Source of the DNA: Escherichia coli
GTDB taxonomy: Bacteria; Pseudomonadota; Gammaproteobacteria; Enterobacterales; Enterobacteriaceae
DNA length: 64,000 bases
Reading direction: 5' to 3' (one strand)
NCBI RefSeq assembly: GCF_030013595.1
Contig: NZ_CP122768.1
Part shown: piece by piece, positions 6,001-24,000 of the stretch
Numbering within the stretch: the stretch's first letter is position 1
How the letters are laid out: each line of letters opens with the position of its first letter
Position numbers: made by a program

Positions 6001-9000
6001 TTTTGCTGATGATACTTCCCTTTGCCAAATGAAATTAACCTCTTTCTCTATTACCGCGTTTTTCCAGAAGCAAGAGATTGGGTATCAAGAGGCTGGCTGC
6101 TATGATATGGCGTCTTGTTTTTTAAGCGAGGAAAGATTTTGAGTGCGGGACGCCTGAATAAAAAATCTCTGGGTATCGTGATGTTGTTATCGGTTGGACT
6201 GCTTTTGGCGGGCTGCTCGGGTAGCAAATCATCCGATACAGGAACGTATTCCGGCTCCGTTTACACCGTGAAACGGGGGGATACGCTATATCGTATTTCG
6301 CGCACCACGGGAACCAGCGTAAAAGAGCTGGCGCGACTGAACGGCATTTCCCCCCCTTACACCATTGAAGTTGGTCAGAAACTAAAACTGGGTGGGGCGA
6401 AAAGTAGCAGTACACGTAAATCAACCGCCAAATCAACGACCAAAACCGCATCGGTTACACCGTCATCAGCAGTACCGAAATCTTCCTGGCCGCCAGTAGG
6501 GCAACGTTGTTGGTTATGGCCAACGACAGGGAAAGTTATCATGCCGTATTCGACAGCTGATGGCGGCAATAAAGGGATTGATATCTCAGCTCCACGGGGG
6601 ACTCCTATTTACGCCGCGGGTGCAGGAAAGGTGGTGTATGTGGGCAACCAGCTGCGTGGCTACGGTAATCTCATCATGATTAAACACAGTGAAGATTACA
6701 TTACGGCTTACGCCCATAATGACACGATGCTGGTAAATAATGGGCAAAGCGTGAAGGTTGGGCAAAAAATCGCCACTATGGGGAGCACTGATGCGGCATC
6801 TGTTCGCCTGCATTTCCAGATTCGTTACCGTGCTACGGCAATTGATCCGCTGCGTTACTTGCCGCCTCAGGGCAGCAAGCCAAAATGCTGATGGCGAATT
6901 AATCAGCAGTCAGCAGCGCGGCACTTGCTAAGGAGAGCGTAAGGTTTATAATGCCTTACGCATCTCGAAGCGGGCGTAGTTCAATGGTAGAACGAGAGCT
7001 TCCCAAGCTCTATACGAGGGTTCGATTCCCTTCGCCCGCTCCAAACAAACATTTCTCAACGTCTACTAAAGTCCATCAAACCCACGAATATCAAGCCTTC
7101 CAGCCATTTTCATAGTTTATTAACGTCTACTCACAACCACCAGAATCTACACACAGAAGTGTATAGTAATGCGTATAGGACAAAATTTATTTTTTGGAGC
7201 TATACACATGCTGCTTTCAGACCTTGCCATCAGGCGCGCGAAGCCGAAAGAAAAGGCTTATACACTCAATGACGGTAACGGGCTTTCGTTGCTCATTGAG
7301 CCGAACGGTTCGAAAGGGTGGCGACTGCGCTACAGGTTTGCAGGAAAGCCCAAAATGTTGTCGTTGGGTGTGTACCCTGATGTGTCTCTGTCTGATGCCA
7401 GGGCGGCAAGGGATGAGGCTAAAAGGCTTCTTGCTGGTGGTATAAATCCAAGTGAGGCCAGAAAAGCCCAAAAGCGAGAACAGGCGAGCAAATTTGGCAA
7501 TACTTTTGAGGGTATTGCTCGCGAATGGTACGAAAAGCGGATCGACAGGTGGTCATCGTCATACGCCGAGGAAATGATCGAGACGTTTGAAAAAGATGTT
7601 TTTCCGTACATTGGCGGTAGGCCGATCGCAGAAATTAAGCCGATGGAATTGCTGGCGGTTCTTTCCCGTCTTAATGACCGTGGTGCGACTGAAAAATTGC
7701 GTAAGGTTCGCCAGCGATGCGGCGAGGTGTTCCGGTACGCAATCATCACCGGACGCGCCGAATATAATCCAGCCCCTGACCTGGTGAGCGCATTTGCTCC
7801 ACATAAAAAAGAGCATTACGCCTATTTGAAGGCCGACGAACTGCCGGAATTTTTCCGCGTTTTTAATACGTACACCGGAAGCCAGATCGTCAAACTGGCA
7901 ATGCGGCTATTAATTCTGACAGGTGTCAGACCCGGGGAATTACGGCAGGCAGAATGGCAGGAGATCGATTTTGATAATCGTTTGTGGGAAGTGCCTAAAG
8001 AACGAATGAAGATGCGCCGTCCGCATTGTGTGCCATTACCAGAACAGGCGATAAAAATACTGGAGCAGTTAAAAAACATGACAGGCCAGTATCAGTTTAT
8101 TTTCCCCGGTCGTATTCACCACAGTAAGCCAATGAGTGAAATGGCGATGAATGTGCTCATTCGTCGTATCGGCTATGCCGGGCGCGTTACTGGTCATGGA
8201 TTCCGGCACACCATGAGCACCATTTTGCATGAGCAGGGCTATAACACCGCGTGGATAGAGACGCAGCTCGCACACGTCGATAAAAACTCAATTCGTGGCA
8301 CATACAACCATGCGCAATATCTGGATGGTCGCCGGGAGATGCTCCAGTGGTATGCCGACTATATGGATTCGCTCGAGCATGGCGGTAACGTGGTGCATGG
8401 CAAGTTCGGAAAATGTGGATGACTGGTTGCGTATACAGTAGTAGACTTTGAGCGACGAAAGAAAAGGCTGTGTCTAGGGTCGCTCCCGAAAATCCGTACA
8501 CCTCGACGGACTGGTACAGCCACTACAGTAGAGGACGCTGAGGTGTGCGTATGATTGATATTCATGCCGAATTAAACGAATACAAAAAAGATTTTATTTC
8601 TTTACGTGAATTTCTTGAGGTCGTGCTTAAGGTCGCTGGTGATGATTATGATGTTTCAGATGTCATAACTTGGATACTCAGGAGAATAAGCGGAGAACAT
8701 ATCCGCCTGTACACAGTAAATGAATTTAAGCTGTTGGAATCTTTTTGTAACCCGTATCGGGATGAATTTGATTATGATGTTCTTTATAGAAATCTGAATG
8801 CGGTTCGGAAACGTGGTTGTTTACCTGGTGAGAGGGATGAAAATGGTTTTCTGGTGTCCGGTTATTGGGAAGATCCCGAATTTGAGAACATTGGATTTAT
8901 AAGGGGTGAAATTTTCGCAATTTTTCCCGATGTCCTTGACGCGTTAACGAAGCTGGAAGGCGCTAACTCTTCTGAAAATGACGAGGCACAAGGACGCGAT

Positions 9001-21000: not shown

Positions 21001-24000
21001 AACGTGTATAGAAATGTGTATAGAATCTATTTTAGAACTCGAGAATGTGCCTTTATTACTGGTCTTGTTGCTTGTTGTATTGTTCCCTTCGCCCGCTCCA
21101 ATTTATCTTCACCTCATCAACCTGTCATTTTTGTTGTATCTGATTTTCTATATTATCTTAATTCAATCGCTTCAGACTTTTCGCAATCGCCGAAATACTT
21201 CCCCATTTTGTTGTAAATAAAAAGCGTTTACGCAATGCAATCCTTTTGTAACAACCCAGGTAAAATACCTTATTTTCAAGTTGTTAAATAAGTGGTTATC
21301 TACGCTTTTAACAAACGATTGATGGAATATTTTATGAAAGGGAAATCTGCATTAACGCTTCTGCTTGCTGGTATATTTTCGTGCTGCACATGCCAGGCGA
21401 CATGGGCAGAAGTGACGAGTGACTCCGTATTTAACATTCTTAATTCCAGGGGGGAAGCAATAGATAAAAGTTATTTATCGTTAAATCCAGATAAGTATCC
21501 TAATTATCGTCTTCTGATTCACTCAGCCAAATTACAAAATGAAATAAAGAGCCACTATACCAAAGACGAAATTCAAGGATTGTTTACATTAACAGAAAAC
21601 ACACGAAAGTTAGCGTTGACGGAGAAACCCTGGGGAACGTTTATTCTTGCTTCTACTTTCGAAGATGACAAAACAGCGACAGAAACCCACTATGATGCTG
21701 TCTGGCTGAGGGATAGTTTATGGGGCTATATGGCATTAGTATCAGATCAGGAAAATAGGGTAGCTGCAAAAAAGATTCTGCTCACCCTGTGGGATTATAT
21801 GTCTACGCCCGACCAGATTAAGCGGATGCAGGATGTCATTAGCAACCCAAAACGACTGGATGGAATTCCCGGGCAAATGAATGCTGTGCATATCCGATTT
21901 GACAGCAACTCCCCCGTGATGGCAGATGTGCAGGAAGAAGGCAAGCCGCAGCTGTGGAACCATAAACAAAATGATGCTTTAGGTCTTTATCTTGATCTCC
22001 TTATACAAGCCATCGACACTGGTACTATTAACGCTGAAGACTGGGAAAAAGGTGACCGATTAAAATCGATTGCGCTGTTGGTTGCTTATCTGGATAAATC
22101 CAATTTCTATATTATGGAAGATTCTGGAGCGTGGGAAGAAGATGCCCGATTAAACACATCTTCCGTTGCACTGGTGACCTCGGGACTGGAACGTTTGTCG
22201 AACTTACTCTCGAAGAAAGACTCTGTTTTTATTTCTGATTTACTACGCGAAGCTAAAGCCAATGAACTGGATGAAACTTTTTCAACAACGAGGTTGAACC
22301 ATCTCATAGATAAAGGGTATGAAAGAATAACGCTACAGCTTGATTTAGGGGGAGAATCCCCTGGTTATCTGGAAAAAGATAAACATTACAGAGAAGCTGA
22401 TGCGGCCTTACTTAATGTTATTTATCCTGCAAATCTTTCAAAGATAAACACCAGAAGAAAAGAGCAAGTTCTAAAAATAGTTAAAAAACTAGCAGGTCCG
22501 TATGGTATAAAAAGATACGAGAAGGATAATTATCAGTCGGCAAATTTTTGGTTCAATGATATTAAAACTGATACTGATGAAAATTCACATGCGAAAAGAG
22601 AAATGAGCTTCATTCCATCAACAGAAGCAGAATGGTTTTTTGACTCATGGTATGCAAAATCAGCAGCAATTGTTTATAAAGAATCAAGAAAAGAAGAGTA
22701 TTTGAATGACTCAGTGCAATTTATGAATAGATCATTGGCCCAAATAACAGGCGAGAATATGATTGGTGCAAATGGCAGGAGCGTACCAGAAATGGCACTT
22801 CCCGAAAGCTATAACTATATCCACAAGTCGGGAACTTTGCATGAAGCGCCAAGCCCTATCATTCCGCTAAATTGGTCGAAAGCTTCAATGACTCTCATGT
22901 TGAAAGAGATGTCCAACCTTATCAATGATGAGGGAATTAAATAGTTTTCATAATGAGGCGGTCCTGGATTAAAAGGACCGCTCAAAGAGAAATCGTAAGG
23001 GAGGTAAAAGTGATCAATAAATTACTGTTAGCTTACCTGATAGGTCTGGTTGTAACATCGACCTTAATATTTATCTTCTCGGAAGAAAAAGTAACATATC
23101 GGTTGTTTGCTGCAGTAATTACAGGGTTGACCTGGCCGCTTAGCCTCATTCCATCCATCATAAGTCTCATAATTCGTAAATCCGACTAACAAGAAATTTA
23201 TATGAACGATTAAGAAAAATAGTGGATTTGCCCCTATATTTCCAGACATCTGTTATCACTTAACCCATTACAGGCCCGCTGCCGCAGATATTCCCGTGGC
23301 GAGCGATAACCCAGCGCACTATGCGGATGCCATTCGTTATAATGCTCGAACGCCTCTGCAAGGTTCTTTGCTGCCGTTAACCCGTCTGGTTTGGGCATGA
23401 TACTGATGTAGTCACGCTTTATCGTTTTCACGAAGCTCTCTGCTATTCCGTTACTCTCCGGACTCCGCACCGCCGTGTTCTTCGGTTCAAGTCCCAACAT
23501 CCGGGCGAACTGGCGTGTTTCATTAGCCCGGTAGCATGAACCATTATCCGTCAGCCACTCCACTGGAGACGACGGAAGATCGTTGCCGAAGCGGCGTTCC
23601 ACCGCTCCCAGCATGACGTCCTGTACTGTTTCACTGTTGAAGCCGCCGGTAGTCACCGCCCAGTGCAGTGCCTCACGATCACAGCAGTCCAGCGCGAACG
23701 TGACACGCAGTCTCTCTCCGTTATCACAGCAGAACTCGAACCCGTCAGAGCACCATCGCTGATTGCTTTCTTTCACGGCCACTCTGCCTGTATGTGCCCG
23801 TTTCGATGGCGGTACAGCAGGTTTTCGCTCAAGCAACAGCGCATTCTGGCGCATGATCCGGTAAACACGTTTGGCATTGATCGCAGGCATACCATCAAGT
23901 TCTGCCTGTCTGCGAAGCAGCGCCCATACCCGACGATAACCATACGTGGGCAGCTCTCCGATAACATGGTGTATACGGAGAAGCACATCCGTATCATCAG

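Follow-up and report, generated by a model that had tools for sequence, protein, structure and literature searches.

Results

Organisation and insertion of the island

The window analysed here is a 64,000-nucleotide stretch of Escherichia coli DNA (NCBI RefSeq assembly GCF_030013595.1, contig NZ_CP122768.1), in which an island occupies the tRNA gene glyU, between actS and ygeQ. A first-pass annotation had described this island as an insertion of about 14 kb, either a phage-inducible chromosomal island (PICI) or a related satellite. We scanned its 20 open reading frames (ORFs) against PHROGs, NCBIfam and PADLOC, and some of them also against Pfam; the features are collected in Table 1.

The last 18 bases of glyU, TTCCCTTCGCCCGCTCCA, occur exactly twice in the 64 kb, at the two ends of the island (7026-7043 and 21083-21100), and the repeat can be extended to 19 bp, as the base that follows (A) is also identical. 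Because the island brings its own copy of the glyU 3′ end, the tRNA gene remains intact. The insert together with one copy of the core measures 14,057 bp. A synthetic empty junction, made by joining 6544-7043 to 21101-21600, was searched against 5,426 complete E. coli genomes and was found in one place, at ≥80% coverage, in at least 3,389 of them. HCP5S3_I2, the nearest relative of the window's backbone, lacks the island and carries the empty junction in one piece at 99.7% identity, with 118 bp around the junction identical base for base; there, glyU is directly followed by the GH15 gene (ygeQ), a GhoT/OrtT toxin gene and ETT2. In K-12 MG1655, glyU likewise adjoins ygeQ, as the first-pass annotation had stated. 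Given the exact repeats and the recovered empty attB, the 14,057-bp block is therefore an insertion, with exact attL and attR and an empty attB that can be recovered from other genomes. The bracketing repeat and the insertion claimed earlier are thereby both upheld.

The backbone of the window (5000-7043 and 21101-21600) shows about 97.6% identity to most E. coli and reaches ≥99% in only 7 of 5,414 genomes, the best match being the pig isolate HCP5S3_I2. With so few close matches, the window comes from a less-sampled lineage. Its ygeQ (GH15) is full length, and that of K-12 is shorter.

The island has the layout described for Gram-negative PICIs (PMC6092414). An integrase gene lies at one end, and a direct repeat of the att core flanks the element; AlpA follows the integrase and is itself followed by pri/rep, all co-oriented; iterons flank an AT-rich region just 3′ of pri/rep; and the length lies within the range of about 10-15 kb. 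Portal, capsid, tail, large-terminase, holin and lysin families were absent from the matches of the 20 ORFs, which include, of head functions, only protease/scaffold-domain homologues. Profile searches agree with the earlier calls of int, alpA and a P4-family primase (phrog_1; phrog_2790 and phrog_66; TIGR01613 above its cutoff), as well as with those of PerC- and FinO-like genes (phrog_994 twice; NF010317 and NF003434, these last two below their cutoffs).

Comparison with EcCICFT073 carries the assignment further. Experiments on EcCICFT073 have demonstrated that it is excised, replicated, packaged at cos and transferred by both lambda and phi80 (PMC6092414, PMC6739421). Using coordinates from the supplement of PMC6092414, we find the same order in both elements: int, alpA, YlcI/YnfO (on the minus strand), Icd-like, small ORFs, DUF4222/RgdR, P4-family primase, GGTAGAY origin and PerC. 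Identity is 71% between the primases across their whole length, 94% between the Icd-like proteins, 53% for PerC (copy 1 of the window) and 36% for AlpA, and the DUF4222 protein is 52% identical to the 99-residue DUF4222 protein encoded upstream of the CFT073 primase. The phrog_1561 protein near the right end is 69% identical to the last gene product of EcCICFT073. Homology and synteny with a validated element thus support the PICI reading, which had been put forward from the int-alpA-pri order and the size.

Table 1. Features of the glyU island and its attachment site (positions in the window; aa, amino acids; HTH, helix-turn-helix)
Feature	Position	Strand	Basis and remarks
glyU, tRNA-Gly(CCC)	6970-7043	+	ARAGORN, sole tRNA of the window; Rfam tRNA 71.6 bits
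attL core, 18 bp	7026-7043		19 bp including A7044; identical to attR
Tyrosine integrase (int)	7169-8422	+	phrog_1 7.8e-80; NF007246 1.3e-96, 323.7 bits (below the 434-bit cutoff)
int-alpA RNA motif, Rfam RF02996	8467-8534	+	45.5 bits vs gathering score 35.8; E 7.7e-07
Cargo gene, 267 aa	8545-9348	+	Within the 5′ accessory region; no family or fold recognised
Four CCCTNAGGG palindromes	9365-9471		Upstream of alpA; 4 found vs 0.32 expected
AlpA-family HTH regulator/excisionase	9576-9773	+	phrog_2790 1.5e-11, phrog_66 1.7e-11
AntA/AntB-type antirepressor	9851-10651	+	phrog_5817 8.7e-42
YlcI/YnfO family protein	11279-11599	-	NF041551 70.9 bits vs cutoff 30; phrog_6522; divergent from main operon
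Best sigma-70-like promoter match of the island, TTGACA-17-TAAAGT	11646-11674	+	Upstream of icd-to-primase operon; consensus match only
Icd-like protein (cell-division inhibitor family)	11781-11984	+	NF033153 71.6 bits vs cutoff 25
Hypothetical protein, 121 aa	11977-12342	+	phrog_340
DUF4222 protein	12349-12639	+	phrog_285
P4-family primase/replicase, 582 aa	12636-14384	+	TIGR01613 110.4 bits vs cutoff 108.7; phrog_864 1.3e-143
Putative replication origin, 11 GGTAGAY iterons	14402-14690		Both orientations around AT-rich stretch
RepA-helicase relic, C-terminal 115 aa only	14761-15108	+	C-terminal part of phrog_2850; 83% identical to C-terminus of ETEC1747 RepA-family helicase
Second iteron array, AAGTGAGGA x6	15110-15299		6 found vs 0.33 expected
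ProQ/FinO-family RNA chaperone homologue	15575-16117	+	NF010317 9.6e-18, NF003434 1.4e-15, both under cutoffs
PerC-family regulator, copy 1	16114-16401	+	phrog_994 8.2e-36
Small conserved ORF preceding late module	16579-16776	+	No family match; 73% identical to same-position Pantoea satellite homologue
orf197, 197-aa protein	16807-17400	+	phrog_6216 positions 405-544
DUF2213 protein, 217 aa	17465-18118	+	Pfam DUF2213 4.1e-06; middle part of phrog_6216; weak phrog_530 (head maturation protease) 5.7e-05
HTH protein, 174 aa	18289-18813	+	phrog_57 over aa 1-42; N-terminal winged HTH of Xis / lambda-TerS / Rpp type
phrog_1561 protein, 96 aa	19119-19409	+	Homologue of last EcCICFT073 gene
Hypothetical protein, 96 aa	19512-19802	-	No family match; conserved and annotated in SA53-3 and RM9088 islands
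PerC-family regulator, copy 2	19911-20219	+	phrog_994 1.6e-25
Right arm without supported gene	20220-21082		Includes AAACGTGTATAG tandem; no gene annotated in equivalent sister-island stretch
attR core, 18 bp	21083-21100		Exact duplicate of glyU 3′ end

Replication genes and mosaic structure

The iteron origin reported in the first-pass annotation is present downstream of the primase, where GGTAGAY occurs 11 times in 289 bp, compared with 6 times in the other 63.7 kb. GGTAGAY iterons also lie 3′ of the primase in EcCICFT073 and in the glyU island of strain cq9. Between this origin and the ProQ/FinO gene sit a RepA relic and a set of orphan AAGTGAGGA iterons. The same array is found 3′ of an intact RepA gene in the glyU island of ETEC1747, and the same relic is annotated as a partial RepA pseudogene in an island of ETEC1732. 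By these homologies, 14761-15299 is the scar of a swapped replication module, in which a displaced RepA-type replicon has been left beside a working-looking primase and its cognate iterons.

The whole island, at ≥80% coverage, was found in none of the complete E. coli genomes searched. Its parts have different relatives. The left 4.8 kb (int to YlcI) matches the glyU islands of cq9 and ETEC1747 at 96-98% identity. For the primase core, EcCICFT073 is the nearest, with 80% identity in nucleotides. ETEC1747 again matches 14704-15690, cq9 matches 15571-19190 at 99.5%, and 19190-20905 is found in PICIs located elsewhere, one of them being the yejM-proL island of SA53-3. In addition, a PICI that occupies smrA-abgR in ETEC1732 shares 97.6% identity with the stretch 9866-19190. 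Judged from sequence, the island is a mosaic Gram-negative PICI.

Three sister islands at glyU (cq9, U90 and ETEC1747, all annotated by PGAP) share with it the integrase (99.5-100%), the cargo gene, AlpA, the antirepressor, the late module and the att site. They differ in the replication module (the cq9 primase is 55% identical, and ETEC1747 has a RepA helicase), in the right end and, for cq9 and ETEC1747, in a 1-bp deletion inside the attR core (TTCCCTTCG-CCGCTCCA; near 15586 of the cq9 locus and near 13870 of the ETEC1747 locus). The copies with this deletion may excise poorly. We found no description of these sister islands in the literature searched.

Such mosaicism could also mean that the island derives from a PICI that can no longer be mobilised, and persists as a fixed and cryptic remnant, retained on account of its regulators or cargo. 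The truncated RepA gene with its orphan iterons, a combination of parts that recurs in no complete E. coli genome at the coverage used, the attR deletion of the sister islands and the lack of a helper within the window all fit this explanation. In the window copy, on the other hand, attL and attR are exact; Int, AlpA and the primase with its cognate iterons are full length; and neither an insertion sequence nor a frameshift is seen in the core genes. Moreover, the arrangement of primase plus relic recurs at a different att site in ETEC1732 at the 97.6% identity given above, which argues for recent movement of the module. We consider a cryptic remnant rather unlikely.

Left end and regulatory genes

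The integrase is 100% identical to that of the cq9 glyU island; sister-island integrases are annotated from an internal Met at 7208 (404 aa). Short repeats in the two arms are candidate arm-type integrase/excisionase sites: AACGTCTACT occurs twice in the attL arm (7058-7067 and 7122-7131), and AAACGTGTATAG forms a tandem of 2.2 copies in the attR arm (21000-21025). The RF02996 motif lies close behind int, and the gene immediately 3′ of it is the cargo gene rather than alpA.

The 267-residue cargo protein varies in its N-terminal domain and is strongly conserved in its C-terminal domain; it also contains a coiled coil. Its family is small, with 31 clusters, all from Escherichia, Salmonella or Citrobacter. 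Immune systems have been reported from the 5′ or 3′ ends of PICIs (PMC11364771), and we regard this gene as accessory cargo with a possible anti-phage role. Among islands that differ in the 5′ part of int, including that of O104:H4 C227-11, the sequence from the int 3′ part through the RNA motif to the cargo gene is 98-99.9% identical, which points to recombination within int.

Two of the four CCCTNAGGG palindromes upstream of alpA fall within a 33-bp tandem repeat (tandem region 9421-9493). The sister glyU islands, which have the same alpA/int type, contain these palindromes as well; neither EcCICFT073 nor the SA53-3 island has them. They may be operators of the induction switch. Farther right, the divergent ylcI/icd control region (11600-11780) contains a GC-rich hairpin at about 11713-11745 with a sub-threshold symR-like Rfam match on the minus strand. 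This hairpin could be a small RNA or an attenuator. The Rfam matches themselves, symR-like (11708-11780), ncr1175-like (16405-16474) and mir-7578, were dismissed as far under their gathering scores, and the ncr1175-like match overlaps an ordinary terminator hairpin.

RgdR, a type III secretion regulator said to be present in all E. coli PICIs, is the 99-residue protein C1493 of CFT073 (PMC3378721). From its 99-residue length and its position, we infer that the DUF4222 protein upstream of the CFT073 primase is RgdR/C1493, of which the DUF4222 protein of the window is then the positional counterpart. Residues 20-22 of the window protein read HGD, not RGD. The 96-residue ORF at 19119-19409 was also considered as RgdR and rejected, as it matches the last gene of EcCICFT073. 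The ProQ/FinO homologue has a counterpart in a sister island that PGAP labels ProQ/FINO. Together, the antirepressor, the Icd-like, ProQ/FinO and RgdR-family proteins and the two PerC proteins make up a set of regulators typical of the cargo of E. coli PICIs. RgdR- and PerC-family regulators here lie beside the type III secretion locus ETT2, an observation of position with which we claim no functional link.

Some of these genes invite another explanation, namely that this is an integrative genomic or defence island with a P4-type integrase and primase that moves independently of phage particles, for example by conjugation, or does not move at all. FinO/ProQ-like genes are found on conjugative plasmids, an uncharacterised cargo gene adjoins int, and sets of int, alpA and primase are ambiguous in SatelliteFinder. 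We give this explanation little probability: no relaxase, oriT-associated or type IV secretion family was among the matches of the general library scans, homology to a transduction-proven PICI is strong, and the late module comes from a phage head gene and has a relative embedded in a prophage terL (see below).

Late module

The late module resembles one head gene of a phage, Rac-SA53, taken apart. Residues 63-191 of orf197 align with residues 295-423 of a 430-residue Rac-SA53 head protein (64% identity, E 2e-56), and residues 3-215 of the DUF2213 protein align with the N-terminal ~220 residues of that same protein (54.5% identity). Two halves of one head protein are thus encoded by separate island genes, in swapped order. 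In Rac-SA53, the gene lies between portal/head-morphogenesis genes and the major head protein gene, and its product has weak matches to head maturation proteases. Short, satellite-type DUF2213 proteins (~223 aa) are kept across Escherichia, Citrobacter, Salmonella, Enterobacter, Pantoea and Klebsiella. Conservation across six enterobacterial genera implies that the split, order-swapped arrangement has been selected and is not a product of decay.

Three residues of the DUF2213 protein, H73, S127 and H161, are invariant in 25 homologues, and we take the spacing of His and Ser to resemble that of the HK97 and T4 prohead proteases. These likenesses suggest that the protein probably has a prohead-protease fold. 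A profile search of PDB proved uninformative on DUF2213, since only the NUDIX domains of longer homologues were matched. The C-terminal domain of the Rac-SA53 protein, in turn, probably binds capsid protein, and its homology to that domain makes orf197 a candidate alternative scaffold.

In the 174-residue protein, the HTH is followed by an unmatched alpha/beta domain. Its gene occupies the place of RppA in EcCICFT073 and that of a TerS-like (small terminase) gene in a Pantoea relative described below. The protein was rejected as an Rpp homologue by sequence, because BLASTP against RppA aligned a 25-residue stretch of the HTH only (40% identity); phmmer against PDB, including RppC (6hn7), gave no match. 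Packaging of the lambda cos type is likewise unsupported, as neither the phi4/lambda cosN (≤3 mismatches) nor its 12-mer (1 mismatch) was found.

Two phage-derived head-gene fragments and an antirepressor would also be expected of a decayed prophage, which is what 'CP4-like cryptic prophage' means if taken literally. Yet the element is only 14 kb long, with portal, capsid, tail, terminase and lysis genes missing from its matches, and its modular order is conserved over many genomes and genera. The head-gene homologues are diverged (54-64%), intact and swapped in order, unlike a deletion remnant. A decayed prophage is therefore very improbable.

Candidate helper phages

From homology and context, the likely helpers are Rac-SA53-type temperate phages. 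Physical linkage is seen in a satellite of Pantoea agglomerans (JACYNF010000003), whose genes run DUF4222, primase (61% identical), SSB, PerC, small ORF (73%), orf197 homologue (60%), DUF2213 homologue (61%) and TerS-like. Immediately beyond these genes comes the C-terminal third of TerL (large terminase), 80% identical to Rac-SA53, and the next prophage genes resemble Rac-SA53 as well: portal (74%), head morphogenesis (78%), the prophage's own DUF2213 protein (69%) and major head protein (84%). The Pantoea satellite thus lies within terL of a Rac-SA53-type prophage, a helper-embedded configuration like that described in PMC10111431; the locus as examined begins inside the left satellite junction. 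A TumE/HVO_A0114 gene pair adjoins the integrase of this satellite.

The Rac-SA53 head module is present in 89 of the 5,426 genomes. Of the 30 genomes that match the island best, at least 10 carry it (naive hypergeometric p 2e-11), as do at least 6 of 12 genomes sampled among those with the orf197-DUF2213 module (p 1.4e-08, likewise naive). Of 48 sampled genomes with the 174-residue gene only, at most about 1 has it. The overlaps are lower bounds, counted over the 60 listed of the 89 phage-bearing genomes.

In cq9, STEC719 and ETEC1732, the phage head module and a second island copy are about 30-40 kb apart. The idea that this second copy is embedded in the Rac prophage was rejected in ETEC1732, the one genome inspected, where the smrA-abgR and ttcA att sites are merely neighbours. 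The ETEC1732 region (2822001-2872000) contains a full-length Rac-type prophage at ttcA, with ADP-ribosyltransferase and subtilase-family toxin genes and a Rac-SA53-type head module; the sister PICI at smrA-abgR, about 6 kb from the integrase end of the prophage, carries an additional gene, for a lytic transglycosylase, in its late module. Separately, two RefSeq assemblies named 'DH5alpha' (~4.83 Mb) carry a Rac-SA53-type head module at an identity equal to that of E. coli W and its derivatives, which suggests that they are mislabelled.

The CP4-like label given to the island at first needs refining: the element is P4-like in its primase and integrase type, and not in the rest. A P4-like satellite that exploits a P2-type helper would account for the TIGR01613 primase and the P4-type arrangement of integrase and AlpA. 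These three genes are, however, all that the island has in common with such satellites; none of the ORFs had a match among the Psu, Sid, Delta or Epsilon families, and the late-module homologues come from a siphovirus-like head module of Rac type rather than from P2. Gene content largely refutes this explanation, and we give it almost no weight.

Discussion

The explanation that we favour, and hold to be quite probable, is that the island is a PICI-type phage satellite placed in the glyU 3′ end by its own tyrosine integrase, with Rac-SA53-type phages as likely helpers and competition with the phage scaffold as a proposed part of its life cycle. By analogy with EcCICFT073 and EcCIMP1, a PICI of E. 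coli MP1 (PMC6092414, PMC11773190), a helper phage would switch on alpA; AlpA and Int would drive excision, and AlpA would turn on the rightward operon from icd to primase; the primase would initiate replication at the GGTAGAY iterons; and concatemers of the island would be packaged in helper-made particles. For the late genes, the free C-terminal-domain protein orf197 may compete with the phage scaffold/protease for the Rac-type capsid protein, as CpmB of the Staphylococcus aureus pathogenicity island SaPI1 does. The outcome could be small capsids fit for 14 kb, or a poisoned helper assembly; 14 kb is about 27% of the 52-kb Rac-SA53 genome. The adjacent 174-residue HTH protein could redirect DNA recognition for packaging. 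By analogy, then, the island probably exploits Rac-type helpers through scaffold mimicry.

A stronger version of this idea is possible, though we advance it only tentatively: that the late module is a previously undescribed way of hijacking helpers. Under this proposal, a captured protease-scaffold gene would have been split into capsid-binding and protease domains which, together with an HTH protein for packaging specificity, remodel or sabotage Rac-type capsids, and the 267-residue gene might encode a new anti-phage function. We found no description of a DUF2213 late module, or of a Rac-type helper for PICIs, in the literature searched.

Several points weigh against the favoured explanation. 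Nothing in the sequence analysis shows excision, replication or transfer, and in a mosaic with a relic replication module some functions are possibly broken. No helper prophage is visible within the 64-kb window, and neither a cos nor a pac site was identified in the island. The protease assignment comes from weak profile matches only (5.7e-05, 9.5e-06) plus conserved His and Ser residues. Likeness of the 174-residue protein to TerS and Rpp is confined to a small HTH that is also found in excisionases, so that the fold is ambiguous. The co-occurrence of island and phage is confounded by lineage and ecology; several of the strains are clonal, and the statistics ignore kinship. Of 15 listed genomes with an unrelated right-end module, 7 are phage-bearing too. 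Finally, in terms of SatelliteFinder (PMC10085698), the island probably scores 3-4 of the 5 PICI core components, a class which its authors did not assign confidently. It has no capsid homologue, and the 174-residue protein has only a 42-residue match to the terS HTH, unlike Type A of that scheme; class B or C is likely, as judged from gene content rather than from SatelliteFinder profiles.

PICIs move virulence regulators and immune genes among enterobacteria and shape phage-host dynamics. A single copy adds little to this picture: thousands of int-alpA-primase elements have already been catalogued (PMC10085698), and related islands at glyU and at other att sites are known from other sequenced E. 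coli. The useful lead is the late module, through which one set of poorly classified PICIs can be linked to Rac-SA53-like phages, a group that includes carriers of toxin genes such as LT-IIa. The module also suggests a testable hijack of capsid assembly by scaffold mimicry in Gram-negative bacteria. If this is true, the widespread full-length prophages of Rac type have a satellite family dedicated to them.

Comparison with known systems

Despite the shared order of genes described above, the island differs from EcCICFT073 in several features. The integrases are only 26% identical, as expected from the different att sites (ycfD-phoQ in EcCICFT073, not glyU). Four features of EcCICFT073 are missing from the window island, namely the homologues of capsid and decoration proteins, RppA and the lambda-type cos sites. 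In their place, the window island has the module of orf197, DUF2213 and the 174-residue protein, together with the antirepressor, ProQ/FinO, a second PerC and the 5′ cargo gene. By sequence, its 174-residue protein, with an alignment to RppA limited to 25 residues, falls outside the Rpp family.

EcCIMP1 (PMC11773190), assigned by its authors to SatelliteFinder Type C, shares int, AlpA, an antirepressor, a primase and PerC with the window island. It has been mobilised experimentally and, like the window island, lacks canonical capsid and terminase components. By description rather than by sequence, it differs in its tRNA-Thr att site, its size (20 kb), its P22-like helper Kapi1 and its other late genes. 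The island also differs from capsid-forming PICIs (cf-PICIs): of their own capsid, portal, protease, head-tail connectors and TerL, only a protease-like DUF2213 domain was among the matches here.

Helper-embedded PICIs (HE-PICIs), such as 11capE, have captured helper late genes into their late zone (PMC10111431). The Pantoea relative of the late module is similar, in that it lies inside a prophage terL and is co-oriented with the late genes; the window island, by contrast, lies in the tRNA gene glyU and not within a prophage late gene.

The closest functional parallel for orf197 may be CpmB/CpmA of SaPI1 (PMC6893505). CpmB is a small satellite protein that shares the C-terminal, capsid-binding part of the helper scaffold, much as orf197 shares the C-terminal domain of the Rac-SA53 protein (64%), and it competes with the helper scaffold for capsid protein, switching assembly from T=7 to T=4 (PMC6893505). 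CpmB and orf197 are unrelated in sequence. The Rac-SA53 protein is, in addition, a probable protease-scaffold fusion, and the window island keeps the protease-like domain as well.

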